13,207 nt of DNA from an uncultured cyanobacterium (GTDB lineage Bacteria; Cyanobacteriota; Cyanobacteriia; Cyanobacteriales; Microcystaceae): NCBI GenBank assembly GCA_963807635.1, contig CAWEDJ010000023.1, positions 1-13,207 on the forward strand. The letters run 5' to 3'. The stretch's first letter is position 1. Every line of letters starts with the position of its first letter. The notes beneath the pieces were generated by a model, which saw nothing but the letters and a program-made list of their open reading frames with translations, had not been told where the DNA came from and ran no database searches. Shown here piece after piece: positions 49 through 13,207 of this stretch. Made by a program: the position numbers and the translations under genes.

Positions 49-621
49 CTATTCAACCCAGGTGACTTTGCGATAAATATCATCTATCAGACAGCGATAA
101 TTGATACTCCGAAACTCTACTTCCTCCTCCGCGTTGTAACATTTTTCTGACCAAAATCCTGATGACTCACGCCGATAACATTCAATTTTTCGCTGACTTT
201 GATTAATAAGAACGTATTCTTGCAATGTAGGACAGGTTTGATAATCCGTAAACTTTTCCCCCCGATCAAAGGCTTCCGTTGATTTTGATAATACCTCAAT
301 GATCAGAATAGGATAAAGAATAAAATCATCGGTATTACTAATCTCTCTTTCATCACAGACAACTGCAAGATCAGGATAATAATAACAATTTGCCTTTTCT
401 AATTTAACCTTAATATCAGAATTGAGAACAAGACAAGGACTATGAATGAGATGATTACTTAAAATTTGAGTCAAATTACTGGCTAAAACGATGTGGGGTT
501 TTCTAGCTCCGACCATTGCATAAACTTCGCCCCGTCGATATTCATGCTTAATCGGACTAACTCTTTCTCCTTCTAAATATACTTCGGGAGAGATATAAAA
601 AAATTGACGATTGCTTACCAT
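49..621 (-). CDS. Uma2 family (DUF820) PD-(D/E)xK putative endonuclease
   Basis: 190-aa ORF with Uma2 hallmarks: KHEY..GEVYAM, YPDLAVVC, IIEVLSKST..DRGEKF..Y, LQEYVLI. The family is highly expanded in cyanobacteria. Confidence 0.92.
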   Translation of the reverse strand: MVSNRQFFYISPEVYLEGERVSPIKHEYRRGEVYAMVGARKPHIVLASNLTQILSNHLIHSPCLVLNSDIKVKLEKANCYYYPDLAVVCDEREISNTDDFILYPILIIEVLSKSTEAFDRGEKFTDYQTCPTLQEYVLINQSQRKIECYRRESSGFWSEKCYNAEEEVEFRSINYRCLIDDIYRKVTWVE

Positions 622-768: not shown

Positions 769-2177
769 CGCTGTTCTATCAATCTAGGCAGAAGATAGAT
801 AGAAATCACGCGGAAAAATCATCTCCAACAGAGAATTTGTTAGTTTACTTAACTGGAAGAATAGACGACAAAATACTCGCAGTATTTGAGGAGTAAAAAT
901 CACGACTAACCAAGGTTTAAGCAGATTGAAGTAACATAATGGCTGAATAAACAATCGTAAATTATTGAGGGTATTTTTCCAGCCCTTTCCCTTATTCCAT
1001 TTTGGGTGTTTCTGCATTTCTTCTTGAGCAGATTCAGCTAATGTATCAGGAGGTTTTCTGGATTTGTTCAAGGCTTCTGATTGAAGACTCACCATTAAGT
1101 AAGCACTCATGACCAGTTCCCACCACTTTTCAATTTTTTTATATTCTGTTACTCGAAAATCTGCCCATCCTAATTCATTTTTACTTTGCTTTAAACCGTA
1201 CTCTACCCAATTTCTTACTCCGTACAAGTTACCAACTTCTTTATATTTAATGTTGGCTACTTTTGTCATAATATAGAAAGTGGAGTTCGGTGGTAGCGTT
1301 TCTGTATTATCTGTTACTTGCCAATATCTTATTTCTCTTTTTTTACCGAATATAATCTCTCTTATATATCTGATTTCTTTCTTTCCTGTTGAGAATATTC
1401 TGGTGAACTCTCTCCATTTATTACATCTTACTTTTTGCTCAGGTGCCAACCATACTCCGTGATTGCTCCGAATCGCTAGCACAAAGTCTAGTTTTTCTTT
1501 TTCTAAGATACTAACAAAATTATTCTCACTTTCACCATATTCACTATCTGCTAATACGATTTTAATTTTAAATCCTAACTCTTTCAGCTTTTTAATCATT
1601 TCTCCTGCAATTTTTGGCTTACTTTTGTATTCATCTCCTTCTTTTAATCTTGACTTTGGTTTGTACACTTCACTTAATAAGGGGAATGTCATTTCTCTTA
1701 TTACGCCATAGGCTGTTACTGCCACTATTCCATTTTCTATCTTTCCTAGATTTCCTATGTATTGTCTCTTCACATCATCTGTTTTATTCCCTTTTTTCTA
1801 TCTCCTGTTTCGTCTATAATTACTATTATTTCCTCCTCTTTTACTTCATTTAAAATTAATTTTAATCTTCTCTTTCTTACTTCCTCTACTGACCACTCTG
1901 ATTTTCCTATAAAATAATCTATTCCCTGACTATTTTCTAGCCCCGCTACTTCCGCTATTACTGGAAATGTCTTTCTTTTTTTCTCTGATATTAATCCCAA
2001 ATGGATGTATTTAAAATATTCATAACTTCTCACTTCTGGGAATAAGTCTCTATACACTTCATAGTATTCATCAATGAATTTCACTGTTTCTTGCGCTACC
2101 CGTGGCTTAACCATATACCACCTACCTCTTTCAGGGCTTTTTCTTAATTATAACTCTCCTTCTCTGATATAACAGCG
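769..2177 (-). mobile_element. IS701-family insertion sequence (~1.4 kb)
   Basis: The transposase ORFs are bounded by 13-bp imperfect inverted repeats: CGCTGTTCTATCA (769-781) and TGATATAACAGCG (2165-2177), 12/13 match. The size fits the family. Exact ends are inferred and no target duplication is visible. Confidence 0.75.
784..2114 (-). pseudogene. IS701-family DDE transposase split into two frames (1770..2114 and 784..1773); pseudogene or -1 programmed frameshift
   Basis: ORF A ends IIDETGDRKKG and the -1 frame continues NKTDDVKRQYIGNLGKIENG. Later motifs are VLADSEYG and RNWVEYGLKQSKNELGWADF. Joining the frames gives a typical cyanobacterial IS701 transposase. Confidence 0.88.
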
Positions 2178-2322: not shown

Positions 2323-2610
2323 TTAAAACAAATCGCTTAAGTTTTGATGACCATTGACAATTCTTAGGATCTCAATTTGGTCGTCACTCACCCGATAAAA
2401 AATAATGTATCCTTTCAGAGGTAAGCCCCGCAGTGAAGGCGTAATGTGGTTATAACTTCTTCCCATTAAGGGAAACTGAGTTAACTGTTTAATTTTCTGG
2501 TTAAAAAGTTGAAATAGTTTCTCTCCTGCGGTTACATTAACAGTCAGAAAGTAGTCTGCAATTTTGTTTAAATCTCGACTGGCAGTAGGAGCAATAATAA
2601 ATTTTTTCAT
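2323..2610 (-). CDS. parE: Type II toxin, RelE/ParE family (ParE-like)
   Basis: 95 aa with I.P.ASRDL..I..Y, L..FPLMGR and YIIFYRV....IEILRIVNG motifs; starts 2 bp after the antitoxin stop. Confidence 0.88.
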   Translation of the reverse strand: MKKFIIAPTASRDLNKIADYFLTVNVTAGEKLFQLFNQKIKQLTQFPLMGRSYNHITPSLRGLPLKGYIIFYRVSDDQIEILRIVNGHQNLSDLF

Positions 2611-2612
2611 TA

Positions 2613-2873
2613 CTATTTTTGCTGGACTAGGGCAAATTTAGTGAGTAAATCATTGATGACTGTTTCACCATCTAAGCCTTCACCATTATCTATTTCTTGG
2701 ATGGCAACATCAATTTTTTGACGAGTTTCATCTACCCATTGCCAATAGTCATCTTGAAGATTTTCTAAAACCTTAAAGGCGGCATCTATCACCTGTTCAG
2801 GGTTATCAAATTTCCCTGTGTTTAATTGTTTTTGAATAAATTCTTCTTGTTTGGGCTGAAGTTGAATATTCAT
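2613..2873 (-). CDS. parD: Type II antitoxin, ParD-like (ribbon-helix-helix N-terminus)
   Basis: 86 aa: MNIQL.P.QEEFI..QL.TGKF....QVI..A, then an acidic C-terminus (I.EID.GEGLDGETV); directly upstream of parE. Confidence 0.85.
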   Translation of the reverse strand: MNIQLQPKQEEFIQKQLNTGKFDNPEQVIDAAFKVLENLQDDYWQWVDETRQKIDVAIQEIDNGEGLDGETVINDLLTKFALVQQK

Positions 2874-2949
2874 AATATATTCTTACGTTAAAATTTGTAC
2901 GCCGATTATACTGTATCAATTCCATTATAGCCAGACGATAACTGAGCGC

Positions 2950-3007
2950 GATCGCATTTTTTAAGTTTTGATAAGAGAGCGATCGCTTTTTTTGTTGATG
3001 ATAGTCA
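2950..3007 (+). repeat. Direct repeat copy B with two intact HIP1 sites (2948-2955, 2979-2986)
   Basis: GATCGCATTTTTTAAGTTTTGATAAGAGAGCGATCGCTTTTTTTGTTGATGATAGTCA; counterpart of 2239-2295. Confidence 0.8.
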
Positions 3008-3046
3008 TCTAACATCGCAGTTTTCTCGATTTCGATATTTTAAAAA

Positions 3047-3964
3047 CTAATCAACTTCAAAATAGTCAAAATCAATCTTTTTAATTTTATACTCTGAAAC
3101 TGTAGAGACTCCTAAATCAACATCAATCATATATTGAGCTAACTCTTCACCATCAATCATAACTAATTTTATATCGTTCTTAGGAGAATAGGATTTAGCT
3201 TGTTCAGAAAATCTAGACGTTGTAATAAAAATTCCTTTTTTAGCACCTTGTCCAGCCAAAGCACCTACAAATTTCTGAAGCTCAGGTCTTCCTACTACGC
3301 TTTCCCAGCGTTTTGCTTGAATGTAAATGGTATCTAATCCCAGGCGATCTTCCTTAATAATACCGTCAATTCCTTCATCTCCAGTTTTACCAATTGCTCG
3401 ACCAGCCTCTTTAATCGAGCCACCATATCCCATCTTAACAAGTAATTCTACGACTAATTTTTCAAAAAAGTCGGGTGGGCAAGATTTCACTTTTTCTAAA
3501 ATTTCTAACGCTAAGTTACCCCTAATTTCTTGATAGGAATATTCGAGTAACTCTTCAGGGGTTTGTTGATTATCTCTAATCGTCTCAGTTACACTATCTA
3601 ATTGTTTAGAGACAATTCCTGTAATACCAACAAAGTCTAAATATTCGGGATATTGTTTTAATAGAGATATAGTAATCTTTTCTGGTTTATTTTTGAGTAA
3701 CTCCAACCCGCGAGACGTTATTTGAAAAAATGCTCGACTAGGATATTCTAGTAAACCCGCTTTTTTAAGATGAGTTCTTGACCATCCTACACGATTAAAA
3801 AAAATTGTTTGCTTACCACTAGGTAACAATCTTTTTTGCTCATCCTCAGTTAAATTGAAATAACGAGTAAGATATTCAATACATTCCTTAAGAGAGTGTT
3901 GTTTTTCATCACTAGCAAAATCAAGAAAAGGAAGTAAAATACTTTGAAAAGCGGGAATTGGCAT
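3047..3964 (-). CDS. mrr: Mrr-family (type IV) restriction endonuclease
   Basis: 305 aa. Mrr N-terminal winged-helix region (LLPSGKQTIF.NRVGWSRTHLKKAGLL..PSR..FQIT.RG) and catalytic domain (FFEKLVVELL..MGYG, GDEGIDG, IYIQAKRW, KGIFITTS, IDGEEL) with an intact D..QxK motif. Confidence 0.93.
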   Translation of the reverse strand: MPIPAFQSILLPFLDFASDEKQHSLKECIEYLTRYFNLTEDEQKRLLPSGKQTIFFNRVGWSRTHLKKAGLLEYPSRAFFQITSRGLELLKNKPEKITISLLKQYPEYLDFVGITGIVSKQLDSVTETIRDNQQTPEELLEYSYQEIRGNLALEILEKVKSCPPDFFEKLVVELLVKMGYGGSIKEAGRAIGKTGDEGIDGIIKEDRLGLDTIYIQAKRWESVVGRPELQKFVGALAGQGAKKGIFITTSRFSEQAKSYSPKNDIKLVMIDGEELAQYMIDVDLGVSTVSEYKIKKIDFDYFEVD

Positions 3965-3969
3965 ATTGA

Positions 3970-4461
3970 CTAATAATTAAGAACGAGTTGTCGTAAAGGT
4001 TCAGCATTAGGTTCAGTTTTAACTAAATTAAAACCTGTTATTTTTTCTGCAATAGCTATTTCATCTTCTTTAAGATAATGAAAGGATTGCGGCGGACGAA
4101 ATCTCACCCATGTTTTACGAATTTCTTCTAAAGAAAGTTTAGATGTAAATCTATCTTTAATCCTAATACCAACGCCAAAATTAGATTTTTGATAATAATC
4201 ATCAAACTCTTTTTTGCTTACACCAGCATCATCTTTGACTTTTTTCCATAAAACTTGAGTTTCTTCATAAATAATTTCCTGAACTTCAAACCATCCGACT
4301 AAAGATTTAGTAGGTGAAGACTCATAGATAAGTATAAAATCCCCGATATTTAACTGAGGCTTGGCTTTACGAAGCTCAATCGTTTTTTGTTTGTCCAAAA
4401 TTTTTTGAACAAATTCAGGTTTAATTGATAGAAGTAATACTTGAGGTTTTCTTAAATTCAT
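3970..4461 (-). CDS. Stand-alone ASCH (PUA-superfamily) domain protein
   Basis: 163 aa: LLSIKPEFVQKIL..QKTIELRK (ASCH KxxExR motif), GD.ILIYESSP...VG.F.V and RPPQSF.YL. Its start overlaps the upstream stop (ATGA, 4458-4461). Confidence 0.85.
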   Translation of the reverse strand: MNLRKPQVLLLSIKPEFVQKILDKQKTIELRKAKPQLNIGDFILIYESSPTKSLVGWFEVQEIIYEETQVLWKKVKDDAGVSKKEFDDYYQKSNFGVGIRIKDRFTSKLSLEEIRKTWVRFRPPQSFHYLKEDEIAIAEKITGFNLVKTEPNAEPLRQLVLNY

Positions 4462-6566
4462 TTGATTTCTAAATTAAATCCTAAACGATAAAGCGCAATA
4501 AATTCAGCTTGAGATATTCTGGTTGTTGATTGCATAGTAACACGTTTTTCGAGACATTGTTGTATCTTTTTTAACTCAATAGGGTTTGGCAATTGTTCAG
4601 TATGACTGAATTTTATTGCCATAACTTGTTTAGATTTTGAGCAAGACTTAATTTGTTCAAGATTATACAAACCCAGATGTTGAAATTTTTTATACAGAAC
4701 TTCAGGTGTATCAATGATAACATCATCAACCTGTGAACAGGCTCTAATTGAACTGATATTAGAATAACCAGAATCTTTACATTGGCTGACGTACCAAAAG
4801 ATACGAGCAGGAGCCTTTTTTAAACCACCATTACCTTGAATACTTTTATAATAAACTGTATCTAAACTTAAAAATAAATCTGATCGTCGTGAACCAAATA
4901 AGTTTTCTTTTGCTAAATTCTTATCAAATAGCTCTTTGGCATATTCGGGTTTAATGGGAATAATAAAGTTTGGCATATAAGCATCTTCTATCTTTAGAGG
5001 CCATAACAAACGTTCCATGTCCATTGCATAAAATGGGTCTTGTAATGCTTCATCTGAATCTAACCATGAGATTAAAAGCTGGCTAAGACTAGAGTATTCA
5101 GGATTATTTTTACTAGATTGATTTAAAAATGTAATAACTTTCTGTGAACTTAATGTGTCTCGATAACACGCCTTAATCCATTCAAAACCCTGCTGATTTT
5201 TAATAAAATATTGACTTTCTAGAATTTGTTTCTCTGATTCTTTTAGATGAGGATCGGTAATTTTTAAAAAAGAACAATTTTGTAAAATTGAAATTTCTAA
5301 TAACTTATTAACGACAAAGTTTAACAATGTACCTGTTAAGTTCGTGTCTTGGATAATCCGTAAAATAGGCGTTTCTATTTGTCCTTTTTGTGACGTGTCA
5401 TAAACAAATAAAATATATGGCTCATTCTCGTAAGCTAATATATAACATTGAAAATTAGCCTTTTGATTATTATAATTATTGAGTTTTTCTAGGAAATTAT
5501 CGTGATTAGAATCCGGATAAATATCCTGAATTGCTTTGCTAATATCTTTTAAAATAGAGTCATTTAATGTCTTTAATTGAACAGATTTGTTTTCTAATAA
5601 TAAAGGCTGATATTCAATTTTGTCGGTATTGCCTTCTCGAAGATCAATAGCCTCCTCTACTGAAATAATCCGTAAACCTGTCTTCTCGTAAAACAAACTT
5701 GACAAGTCTAATAATTCACTTCTTTCCGTGATAAAGTACGAAATTTTTGAGGCTAAACATCTCGCTATGTGTCTAATACTTACGACATTGAGTTTCACTT
5801 CTTTTTCAGACAATATCACTTTAAGAGATTTAAGGTATTTTTGAAAATCAATATTTTCACAATCTTGTTGCAAAAAATGGCTCTTGACTAAACTCCATAA
5901 ATCTTCTTGTCTTTCAGAATATAATGTTTTAATTTCATTTAAAATTTCGCTGGTTATACAAACACCTAGATAGGAACGAAGCCATTCTACTGAATTTTCA
6001 CTGGGATTTTCTTTTATGAATTTTTGTAAGGTATAAGCATCAATAGAACATTTAAGATCTAAGTTTTCAGAATTAATATACGAAAAAATAGATGGAAGAT
6101 TTGGATTTATAAACCGCATTGACCAGTCTGTTAAGGTATCTCCTGGTCTTTTAGCTGGTTTATCAAAAATTGAGGAATAACCCAACGCACGCCACATTTC
6201 ATCGATACCATAATAACTTTTACAATGGAATTGAATTTGAGAAGAAAGAGGACGAGCTAATTTGACTAATTCATCGTTAAGACGTTTTGCAAGTTTTTTT
6301 CCCTTGTGTTCTTGTTTGACACAAAGTTGCCATAATCGAGTATAGTTTTTATTCTTGTTAACACTCCAGATTAAGTAACCTGCCAAATTGTCATTAATAA
6401 ATGCAACTAATATGCCAGGATTTTTTGCATGTTGCTGATAAAAACAATATGAACAAAAACCTAGAGTTTTCTTATTTGCATCGGCAAGATCAATGATTTC
6501 TTGAATGAAAGGAGAGTTTGCCTCTTTTATTAGTTCAATTCTTACATCAGATTCTAAAGAAGACAT
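4458..6566 (-). CDS. Multidomain protein: N-terminal GNAT acetyltransferase, PIN-like domain, second degenerate GNAT-like region, C-terminal ASCH/PUA-like domain
   Basis: aa ~8-152 GNAT (LAGYL, QLCVKQEHKGKKLAKRL motif A, MW.ALGY). aa ~170-310 PIN-like layout (SIDAY, ITSEILNEI, SIRHIARCLA....FITER). aa ~533-702 resembles the neighbouring ASCH protein (IPIKPEYAKELFD, RIFWYVS, MQS). AGGAG RBS 9 nt upstream (6576-6580). The second GNAT-like region is the least certain call. Confidence 0.75.
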   Translation of the reverse strand: MSSLESDVRIELIKEANSPFIQEIIDLADANKKTLGFCSYCFYQQHAKNPGILVAFINDNLAGYLIWSVNKNKNYTRLWQLCVKQEHKGKKLAKRLNDELVKLARPLSSQIQFHCKSYYGIDEMWRALGYSSIFDKPAKRPGDTLTDWSMRFINPNLPSIFSYINSENLDLKCSIDAYTLQKFIKENPSENSVEWLRSYLGVCITSEILNEIKTLYSERQEDLWSLVKSHFLQQDCENIDFQKYLKSLKVILSEKEVKLNVVSIRHIARCLASKISYFITERSELLDLSSLFYEKTGLRIISVEEAIDLREGNTDKIEYQPLLLENKSVQLKTLNDSILKDISKAIQDIYPDSNHDNFLEKLNNYNNQKANFQCYILAYENEPYILFVYDTSQKGQIETPILRIIQDTNLTGTLLNFVVNKLLEISILQNCSFLKITDPHLKESEKQILESQYFIKNQQGFEWIKACYRDTLSSQKVITFLNQSSKNNPEYSSLSQLLISWLDSDEALQDPFYAMDMERLLWPLKIEDAYMPNFIIPIKPEYAKELFDKNLAKENLFGSRRSDLFLSLDTVYYKSIQGNGGLKKAPARIFWYVSQCKDSGYSNISSIRACSQVDDVIIDTPEVLYKKFQHLGLYNLEQIKSCSKSKQVMAIKFSHTEQLPNPIELKKIQQCLEKRVTMQSTTRISQAEFIALYRLGFNLEIK

Positions 6567-6640
6567 AAATGGTGACTCCTAATATTTGCATAAGACACAA
6601 AATCAAAAAACTATTATTTAAGTTTAACAGAAAAAATATT

Positions 6641-6901
6641 TTAGTCTTCTATTCCTTGCCATAGCTCCGAAACTGGTCTTATTTTTCCTTCTTTGTACTC
6701 CTGTAAAGCCCTTCTCAAACTAGCCTTAACTTCTTCTACAGGCGTATCATCGGGATCAAACTCAACTTCATCCGATTTCGTCAGGTCATTGCTCTCCTGT
6801 CCCGCTAAATGGGCCAAAAAATCAGCCGCAATTAATAGCTTATCGTTTGATAACTGTTCGACATAATCTTGAATTTGACTGCGAAGCTCTACCACACTCA
6901 T
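6641..6901 (-). CDS. Small acidic antitoxin-like hypothetical protein
   Basis: 86 aa with a helical N-terminus (I.DYVEQLS..KL....DFLAHL) and C-terminal DPDDTP.EEV..SLRRALQE.KEG...PVSELW..I, resembling cyanobacterial putative antitoxins. GAGG RBS at 6911-6914. Confidence 0.65.
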   Translation of the reverse strand: MSVVELRSQIQDYVEQLSNDKLLIAADFLAHLAGQESNDLTKSDEVEFDPDDTPVEEVKASLRRALQEYKEGKIRPVSELWQGIED

Positions 6902-6929
6902 AACAAAAGACCTCTACAAAATCTAGACT

Positions 6930-6938
6930 ATTATAGCA
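6930..6938 (-). promoter_or_regulatory. Extended -10 promoter element (TGCTATAAT) upstream of the small gene/GNAT/ASCH/Mrr run
   Basis: The minus strand reads TG-C-TATAAT, a perfect TGnTATAAT, 28 nt upstream of the 6901 start codon. Confidence 0.55.
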
Positions 6939-7026
6939 AAATCCGTTAAGCGCGATCGCCTGCAAATATCTCAACGATTTAAAATATGTAACCCAACAGG
7001 ATTTGGTATTAAAAATTGTGTAGGAT

Positions 7027-11730: not shown

Positions 11731-13207
11731 CTGTAAATAATTAGTTGATGATTAGGTAAAATGAAGAGAAAGCAAAAAAACAGATTGTCTTAAAAAAAGG
11801 AGTAAAAAGGATGAAAGTGACGGTAGAATTCGTGATTCGTAACGAAATGGGAAATATTCTCAGCCAAAACAGCCCATTTGCAATGGAAATAGGAACCCAA
11901 AGCTTACATGACATAGAAGGAGGTGTAGAACAGATGAAACAGAAAGTATTGCCTGAAATAGAGGCAGCATTACTGGCGCAGGCACAAAACGAGTTCACGG
12001 AAAAAGTAAAAAAAACTAAACTTGTGGTGTAATGGTACGAGAAAAATCTGTATAAAAACATTACACGGTCAGTTTGAGTTTTACTTACAAAAGTATCAAA
12101 CGAATAAAAAAGAAGTTAACTATTTTCAGTTATCGGAGCAATTGCAGGAAAGATTTGTGAGTCAGAGATTAGAGGAATTATGCGGTTATTACGCCAATCG
12201 GCTCAGTTATGAGAATTTGGCTGGATTAGTGGAGCGAGTAACAGGAGAAAACTTATTGAGTGACCAGACCATTTGGGGAATAGTGAAAGGGAAAGCCGAA
12301 ACCTATAGCCAGCAAATCCGACAAACTGTACAAGAATCATTAGAATAGACCACATCTGAGCAGATTCAGATAAAGAAAAGCGTAGAGATTTATAACGTAG
12401 AGGAGTCAGAAATTCTCCTATTTGACGATGGTATTCAAGTCAAAGAACAAAAGCCTGAGCGTAATTCGCGTAATGAATCTACTGCCCATACTCCAAGTCC
12501 AGATACCACCAAGAATAAGACTCCCGCCGTCATTACCGATGTAGTAATGTTGCAAACACCCAAAGGGGGATTTGAATATCTCGTTTCTCCTTTTGATACT
12601 GAGGTAGAAGAACCGATAAGTCTTGCGACAGTCGTTAGAGCGAGAATTCTCGACCTCTATCAAAAGGAATCAAAACCGTTGAATATTGTTGCTATCACCG
12701 ATGGGGCAAAAGTCATTCGCCATCGCCTCTTGGCTATCTTTGGTGTTTTACCTGTTGTGATTTTAGACTGGTATCACCTATGCAAAAAAGTGCGAAATCT
12801 GATGTCTATGATTGCTTTCAACAAAGAAGAAAAATCCAATCATGTCAAGTTTTTACTCTCACAATTATGGCATGGTCAGACTGAATATTGCCCTCAACTA
12901 CTTAAAACATCAGGTTGTTGCTCGCAATAACAAGGTCTTGTTGGAACTTATTGGTTATTTGGAGAAACATCACTCAGAAATCATCAACTACGAAGGTCGG
13001 CGAAAAGTCGGTAAAAGTATTGGTAGTGGTCGCATTGAAAAAGGCGTAGATTTGGTCGTTGGTCATCGTCAGAAAAAAAAGGGTGTAAGTTGGAGCATGA
13101 ATGGTAGCAAGGCTTTAAGCTTTCTCAAGGTAGCTGAACTTAATCATTGCTGGACTTCTCTTTGGTTTCCTGCTCAATCTTGTTAATCATCAACTAATTA
13201 TTTACAG
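11731..13207 (+). mobile_element. IS element of ISKra4/ISLre2-like type (~1.48 kb) with perfect 24-bp terminal inverted repeats
   Basis: IRL CTGTAAATAATTAGTTGATGATTA (11731-11754) and IRR TAATCATCAACTAATTATTTACAG (13184-13207) enclose the transposase fragments. The outer boundary and target duplication cannot be checked because the window ends here. Confidence 0.88.
11811..13186 (+). pseudogene. Disrupted DDE transposase (ISKra4/ISLre2-like)
   Basis: Motifs LLFDDGI, ITDGA, ILDWYH and IGSGRIEKGVDLVVGHRQKKKGVSWS. Breaks: frame change at an A8 run (12008-12015), in-frame TAG (12346-12348) and a +1 frameshift at ~12884-12886 (LWHGQT / IALNYL). Confidence 0.85.

Follow-up and report, generated by a model that had tools for sequence, protein, structure and literature searches.

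The window analysed here, a stretch of 13,207 nucleotides from an uncultured cyanobacterium (contig CAWEDJ010000023.1), contains three adjacent minus-strand genes that encode a large fusion protein with acetyltransferase (GNAT), PIN-like and PUA-superfamily domains, a solo ASCH protein and an Mrr restriction endonuclease; the first two genes are referred to below as the module. An original prediction, made from the sequence alone, had read the three as writer (GNAT), reader (two ASCH domains) and cutter (Mrr), and had described co-directional genes with an ATGA overlap and a 5-bp gap. The open reading frames (ORFs) and the bases agree with that description: the ORFs lie at 4458-6566 (702 residues), 3970-4461 (163 residues) and 3047-3964 (305 residues), the first two overlap by ATGA on the minus strand (bases 4458-4461), and 5 bp (3965-3969) separate the ASCH gene from mrr.

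The three genes and their proteins

The genes and domains are as follows.

3047..3964, minus strand: Mrr type IV restriction endonuclease, 305 residues (P0003), winged-helix and PD-QxK domains (Pfam Mrr_N and Mrr_cat, PADLOC)
3970..4461, minus strand: solo ASCH protein, 163 residues (P0002), ZmASCH-like, of the K-x-x-E-x-R type (Pfam, PADLOC, alignment)
4458..6566, minus strand: GNAT–PIN–GNAT–PUA (EVE/ASCH-like) fusion gene, 702 residues (P0001; Pfam, profile, model)
6111..6545, minus strand: GNAT domain 1 (GNAT1) of P0001, residues ~8-152, putative active acetyltransferase (Pfam PF00583, fold search)
5631..6059, minus strand: PIN-like domain, residues ~170-312, probably catalytically dead (PIN matches of relatives, tetrad conservation)
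5169..5585, minus strand: putative second GNAT-like domain, residues ~328-466, without the acetyl-CoA motif (secondary structure of the model, sequence, Matelska 2017 Fig. S6B)
4476..4976, minus strand: C-terminal PUA-superfamily domain, residues ~531-697 (hhalign, PADLOC PDC-M11A over 514-695, Atlas)

The predicted structure of P0001 has four globular parts (predicted local distance difference test score, pLDDT, 82; predicted template modelling score 0.56), and a family profile matches the protein over its whole length. Of the parts named in the original prediction, Pfam recovered the GNAT in the window protein and the PIN in relatives, and hhalign recovered the ASCH-like part, but the PIN site is degenerate and a probable second, degenerate GNAT-like domain had been missed. 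Pfam places the GNAT match at residues 43-105, and the fold matches of the full model, which concern GNAT1 alone, are to Ard1, NatC, Naa50 and RimI (best Z 20.0, root-mean-square deviation (rmsd) 1.6, 142 residues aligned); this likeness does not give the substrate. In motif A, defined as R/Q-x-x-G-x-G/A, the window protein reads K88-G89-K90-K91-L92-A93 and the family R-G-x-G-x-A. The clade of the window protein differs from the family at four conserved residues (H80Q, G91K, R116K and D118Y), of which H80, R116 and D118 are nearly invariant outside this clade, and their alteration may reflect either a new substrate or decay.

No PIN domain is detected by Pfam in P0001 itself; PIN_3 or PIN is found in 35 of the 40 full-length relatives scanned (150 listed). 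The catalytic tetrad, assigned from conservation and not from structure, occupies positions 176, 207, 263 and 282, which are D, E, D and D in 130 of 144 family representatives of suitable length (Asp at 263 in 132 and at 282 in 133). The window protein keeps D176 and E207 and has Ser at 263 and Arg at 282, with Tyr replacing N178. An active PIN ribonuclease needs four acidic residues, and the domain is thus probably catalytically dead. Between the PIN and PUA domains we infer the second GNAT from the secondary structure of the model, a sequence without motif A and the published architecture. By hhalign (95.7%, E 1e-8), the C-terminal domain shares homology with the solo ASCH family. An Atlas search points tentatively to an EVE cluster (13% of members), and the family residue W542 is Tyr in the window. 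Within the clade, mean identity is 0.69 for PUA, 0.57 for GNAT1, 0.48 for PIN and 0.43 for the second GNAT; PUA is the most conserved domain, with GNAT1 about equally conserved.

P0002 matches PADLOC PDC-M11B (E 9e-35 over residues 5-140) and aligns with ZmASCH (PDB 5GUQ) over residues 9-136 (E 7e-16), so that the ZmASCH residues Y47, K53 and S128, which were tested in its paper, correspond to Y46, K52 and S126. ZmASCH binds and weakly cuts single-stranded RNA. The analogy with YqfB, an N4-acetylcytidine (ac4C) amidohydrolase, which the original prediction had drawn, fails at the catalytic threonine: P0002 has K26-T-I-E29-L-R31 where K-x-x-T/S-x-R is expected, without the Thr24 nucleophile, and Glu takes this position in all 79 aligned ASCH proteins. 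A YqfB-type identity was therefore rejected. According to a 2026 preprint, some Glu-type ASCH proteins remove ac4C, whereas ZmASCH is reported not to; P0002 may thus still act as an ac4C eraser despite Glu29.

P0003 matches PADLOC mREase_IV (E 5e-86) and, as originally predicted, carries an intact catalytic motif (D-x-G-x-D...Q-A-K). It shares its winged-helix and PD-QxK architecture and this motif with E. coli K-12 Mrr, which acts on methylated DNA (PMC12707154), but differs from it in being closely coupled to a GNAT/ASCH module. PADLOC, proposed earlier as a check, thus returns PDC-M11B and mREase_IV, whereas its PDC-M11A profile covers only residues 514-695 of P0001 (E 1e-7).

Nuclease partners of the module

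A genome scan confirmed 116 loci, of which the best 80 were analysed; the query biases this set towards cyanobacteria. The ASCH gene directly follows the large gene in the window and in 79 of the 80 loci. McrB comes after ASCH in 51 loci (50 by ORF clustering plus the broken L015), accompanied by McrC in 47, and, of 49 measured gaps between ASCH and McrB, 47 fall between -4 and 282 bp. Mrr adjoins the module in 10 loci: downstream, as in the window, in L001 (truncated) and L002, upstream in L003, and tail-to-tail in L004, L009, L012, L013, L014, L022 and L070. McrB or Mrr is adjacent in 61 of the 80 loci and both together in none, so the pair is commonly, not rarely, found next to nucleases, as the original prediction required. 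Of the 19 loci without a nuclease, 11 are non-cyanobacterial or unassigned and 8 are cyanobacterial; in two of these 8 the sequence stops no more than 600 bp from ASCH. Any other defence gene is present in 4 of the 80 loci at most. The original prediction was also right that the window has no DNA methyltransferase (no Pfam match among the 17 ORFs scanned); classical methylation-based restriction-modification (RM) would need a cognate methyltransferase, and none recurs around the 80 loci either.

A second sample of 400 genomes of the phylum, evenly drawn and partly overlapping the first locus set, contained 17 full-length modules, 13 with McrB, one with Mrr and three with neither, the last three all with an intact PIN tetrad. 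A profile of the McrB N-terminal domain hit 13 of the 400 genomes, directly after the module in all 13; the McrC family is far commoner (95 of 401 genomes). This domain of ~230 residues (L044:9653-10342 and relatives) belongs to no Pfam family. Seven of the top eight fold matches of its model (pLDDT 91) are HhH-GPD-type glycosylases and one is a phage base-modifying enzyme, with middling scores (Z 5.2-6.8; best Z 6.8, rmsd 4.2, 177 residues aligned), and an Atlas search returned unnamed clusters and DUF8425. The motifs are intact in 46 of 47 McrB and 44 of 44 McrC proteins. L038 has an extra insert of ~130 residues between the McrB N-terminal domain and the GTPase, and in two loci a beta-lactamase-like gene stands between ASCH and mcrB, with mcrBC kept (L042:9769-10917, L055:9914-11062).

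The linked Mrr proteins fall into two groups, and the hypothesis of a single clade was rejected (approximately unbiased test, p 2e-6; 23 rows, near-duplicates dropped). The tail-to-tail group is common to two different module lineages, and linked Mrr sits on three branches of the module tree. Relatives of Mrr at 63-71% identity occur in two genomes in which the module was not found (G352 and G298), and the neighbours of 20 unlinked Mrr genes include methyltransferases in some cases and housekeeping genes in most. Coupling is better supported at the McrBC loci than for the window's own Mrr.

A metagenome scan gave no matches with P0001 as the query and six loci with a clade alignment; three of these extend beyond ASCH, on cyanobacteria-like contigs, and have Mrr (L118) or McrB (L121, L122). 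A viral scan found one distant locus, which has an intact PIN and adjoins an Eco57I-type methylase gene, and gave no sign of a family of phage genes. The module was also seen on two cyanobacterial plasmids, L154 (NZ_CP023279.1), where an ATPase gene and then transposon genes follow ASCH, and NC_019727.1. At L103:5041-7362 (G176), a 574-residue PIN-GNAT-EVE-type gene lies tail-to-tail with ASCH and matches PDC-M11A better than the window protein does. The non-cyanobacterial modules L071 and L076 adjoin DUF499 ATPase genes, a defence context also described in Bell 2020.

Decay of the PIN site

The state of the PIN tetrad was compared with linkage in 83 full-length rows (L053 was dropped as uninformative and split genes were excluded). 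A nuclease goes with a degenerate PIN in 61 rows and no nuclease with an intact PIN in 16, leaving three and three discordant rows, so that the tetrad is intact in 3 of 64 nuclease-linked rows vs 16 of 19 unlinked rows. The patterns of degeneration differ between lineages, which suggests relaxed selection. Furthermore, within one clade of cyanobacterial modules that otherwise lack a nuclease and retain an intact PIN, L070 alone combines Mrr with a degenerate PIN (all module trees were built with FastTree). A naive Fisher test (p 1e-7) was rejected because the rows share ancestry, and the tie between PIN loss and nuclease linkage is suggestive.

Genomic setting

The host is a cyanobacterium, as judged by crr7 (Pfam) and a HIP1 density of 1.18/kb. 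The three genes have a GC content of 30-34%, vs 40.9% for the genome, and no HIP1 sites within their 3.5 kb. A search of five same-genus genomes (four at least 90% complete) detected no copy of the large protein or of Mrr. In one of the same genus, G004, the same slot beside crr7 holds a RelN-type antitoxin gene followed by a RelE-like toxin gene, and the three genes are absent there. Contigs of runs X1, X2 and X4, one of which could be the source sample, bridge the gene junctions, and the X4 contig 2970-5779 extends over mrr and ASCH into the large gene. Low GC content and lack of HIP1, absence from the same genus, the G004 slot and the bridging contigs together show that the three-gene cassette is real, was recently acquired and moves as a unit. 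The G004 pair adjoins an AAA ATPase (weak MADS3-like match) and DUF4276 gene pair, and because G004 has both pairs there, the crr7-adjacent site is a variable slot for defence genes.

The edges of the cassette and the remaining genes of the window are as follows.

49-621, minus strand: Uma2-family putative endonuclease
784-2114, minus strand: DDE_5 transposase broken into two ORFs
2323-2873, minus strand: ParD-like antitoxin and ParE toxin pair, just 3' of mrr
2948..2986, no strand: two HIP1 octamers, starting at 2948 and 2979, at the downstream cassette edge
6641..6901, minus strand: RelN-type antitoxin gene, toxin absent, upstream of the three genes
6952..6959, no strand: HIP1 octamer, upstream edge of the crr7-adjacent variable slot
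11811-13186, plus strand: four short ORFs with the look of a fragmented transposase, no Pfam match

One contig of run X6 joins 2992 to 6999, a weak hint with a short side of 27 letters. No convincing target-site duplication or terminal repeat was found at the cassette, and scans for promoters and terminators did not depart from chance (15 vs 21 expected and 2 vs 2.2, respectively). In the AtaT/TacT layout, a small GNAT toxin lies behind a ribbon-helix-helix/DUF1778 antitoxin. A type II GNAT toxin-antitoxin system of this kind was rejected here, since the GNAT protein is multi-domain and the upstream RelN-type antitoxin pairs with a RelE-like toxin in G004.

A possible role in priming invader DNA

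As judged from sequence comparison, the GNAT-PUA and ASCH pair is fixed, a type IV nuclease stands beside it in most cyanobacterial loci, and the PIN site has decayed in most of those. We tentatively favour the explanation that the module serves as an accessory, acetylating or otherwise priming invading DNA for a modification-dependent nuclease, which has replaced its PIN. The two PUA/ASCH domains would bind foreign nucleic acid carrying unusual bases, and GNAT1 would move acetyl from acetyl-CoA, most likely onto a base amine of the invading DNA. The altered DNA would become a substrate for Mrr, which would cut the invader or else the chromosome, killing the infected cell. Under this explanation, the PIN RNase would be an earlier built-in effector that later became redundant, and the output of the module in cyanobacteria would run through a modification-dependent DNase. 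The chemistry throughout is what we infer from the domains and their neighbours. A chemical link, through the state of the DNA, is favoured over protein contact or a shared promoter because two unrelated nuclease folds, in three orientations, would share mainly a dependence on modified DNA. Mrr would also work alone against methylated DNA, and the module more likely widens its range of targets than shields the host, because close relatives of this Mrr live without the module. In this changed form, the earlier idea of writer, reader and cutter gains partial comparative support: the linkage in 61 of 80 loci makes it plausible, but Mrr is the partner in only 10 of the 80 and lies apart from the module in 68 of the 69 genomes that have it.

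Several observations weigh against this explanation. None of the 11 non-cyanobacterial or unassigned loci has such a nuclease, and a single founding event could account for all of the McrB links. The PIN is intact alongside McrBC in L025, L030 and L034, and degenerate without a nuclease in L064, L067 and L076 (the last possibly misaligned); once the tree is taken into account, PIN loss yields ~2 independent pairs that are concordant and none that is discordant, which is not significant (p 0.5). Mrr occurs in 69 of the 400 phylum genomes and is linked to the module in G123 only, and two unlinked Mrr proteins fall inside the Mrr group of the window. Among the three closest genome loci, the Mrr of L001 is truncated at about 71 residues and the large gene of L002 has two stops. 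Finally, the best fold matches of GNAT1 are protein N-acetyltransferases, and the four altered family-conserved residues in the clade of the window protein could mean decay.

The last-named fold matches also speak for a guard, or back-up abortive infection, in which GNAT1 would act as a toxin, acetylating aminoacyl-tRNA or a protein once infection is sensed by the PUA/ASCH domains, and the module would form a second line beside restriction enzymes with no shared chemistry. Bell 2020 places PIN-GNAT-EVE operons near type I RM and proposes tRNA acetylation (PMC7641849), PDC candidates were recognised by their location inside BREX, DISARM or type I RM, and for some such operons the PIN is reported to be dispensable; the action of ZmASCH on single-stranded RNA would fit as well. 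Such a guard does not predict, however, that one McrB subtype always occurs with the module (13 of 13) or that loci with a retained PIN mostly lack an adjacent nuclease, and we consider it somewhat unlikely, ranking it next after the priming of invader DNA.

Less likely again is hitch-hiking, in which a GNAT/ASCH pair that is autonomous or in decay was caught in a defence slot along with an ordinary Mrr, the two forming one cassette with uncoupled functions. The slot has other defence and toxin-antitoxin genes in G004, the window contains ParDE, Uma2 and transposases, Mrr is widespread (69 of 400 genomes) and has methyltransferases and housekeeping genes among its other neighbours, the independent events are few, and broken copies exist. 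Set against these are the direct adjacency in 61 of 80 loci, the mutual exclusion of McrBC and Mrr, the recruitment of at least two separate Mrr lineages and the restriction of each other defence gene to at most 4 of the 80 loci. Self-marking RM, in which GNAT1 would acetylate host DNA (or the nuclease) as protection and the nuclease would cut unmarked DNA, is the least probable reading and fits poorly as proposed in the original prediction, because the Mrr relatives in G352 and G298 need no mark and E. coli Mrr acts on methylated DNA, even though the McrB subtype is never found without the module, like a restriction enzyme dependent on its modifier, and the host is methyltransferase-rich (8 matches on its other contigs), so that a type IV nuclease needs restraint. 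McrBC-like enzymes that are paired with methyltransferases and cut unmodified DNA, such as LlaJI, also speak for self-marking.

Priming of invader DNA can be taken further, to a mark-and-cut immunity that we regard as doubtful: the host would acetylate bases of invading, probably hypermodified DNA, a modification-dependent nuclease would destroy it, and McrBC, and on at least two occasions Mrr, would have taken over the effector role of a PIN-RNase module. If true, host-written DNA base acetylation would serve as a 'cut here' signal, the reverse of RM, and this would amount to a new DNA modification, a new restriction logic and a function for the glycosylase-fold McrB reader, with a bearing on cyanophage infection barriers and on DNA transfer into cyanobacteria. 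The cyanobacterial version offers a direct handle, with a PIN that is apparently off, a nuclease partner with a simple readout and two swappable partner forms.

Comparison with known systems

The pair matches, by its architecture, the PIN_17 or (PIN)-GNAT-PUA + ASCH operons, a family with 1,276 representatives at 50% identity (E up to 1e-30). PIN_17 operons (Matelska 2017, PMC5499597) have the same domain set and two-gene layout, with GNAT, GNAT, PUA and PUA listed in the text of Fig. S6B and examples from Trichodesmium and Microcystis. The PIN-adjacent GNAT lacks motif A there too, and PIN_17 is left uncharacterised; the PIN of the window differs in being degenerate. The terms McrB and Mrr are absent from the parts of the supplement available. 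The related (PIN)-GNAT-EVE + ASCH operons of Bell 2020 (PMC7641849), for which Iyer et al. 2013 is also cited, are in a predicted defence context and linked there to type I RM and prophages, whereas the window has neither the AAA_17 ATPase nor HTH-ASCH. Bell 2020 states that none of the modules had been characterised; its text does not mention Mrr and names McrBC only for EVE-McrB fusions. Published predictions for the family are DNA acetylation, tRNA acetylation or toxin-antitoxin.

PDC-M11, one of 145 untested PADLOC candidates, matches P0002 strongly through PDC-M11B, whereas PDC-M11A matches the C-terminal part of P0001 and, in relatives, the PIN part; the window protein has an extra N-terminal GNAT and 702 residues, compared with profiles of 357-501 positions. 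The END nucleases include iEndoIII-McrB fusions, whose inactive-EndoIII domains sense hypermodified bases (PMC12191111). The McrB of the relatives resembles them in its HhH-GPD/Ogg-like N-terminal domain, but this fold likeness is middling (Z 6.8), McrB is absent from the window, and no GNAT partner is mentioned in the parts of that source available. BapA/Brig3 (bioRxiv 10.64898/2026.02.25.707755) is a precedent for the favoured explanation, sharing the logic of a phage base change that feeds a defence enzyme and extends its range; BapA removes glucose for a glycosylase, and no homology with the module is claimed.

The available parts of PMC12839542, PMC10853773, PMC12707154 and PMC11037411 describe no link of the module with Mrr or McrBC. 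As the original prediction had stated, GNAT/PIN/ASCH pairs are known from comparative genomics and uncharacterised: our literature search, in which subscription journals were thinly covered, found no experimental study and no report of McrBC/Mrr pairing or PIN decay. Thus, the pair itself is already known, and the pairing with McrBC or Mrr and the decay of the PIN site are new here.

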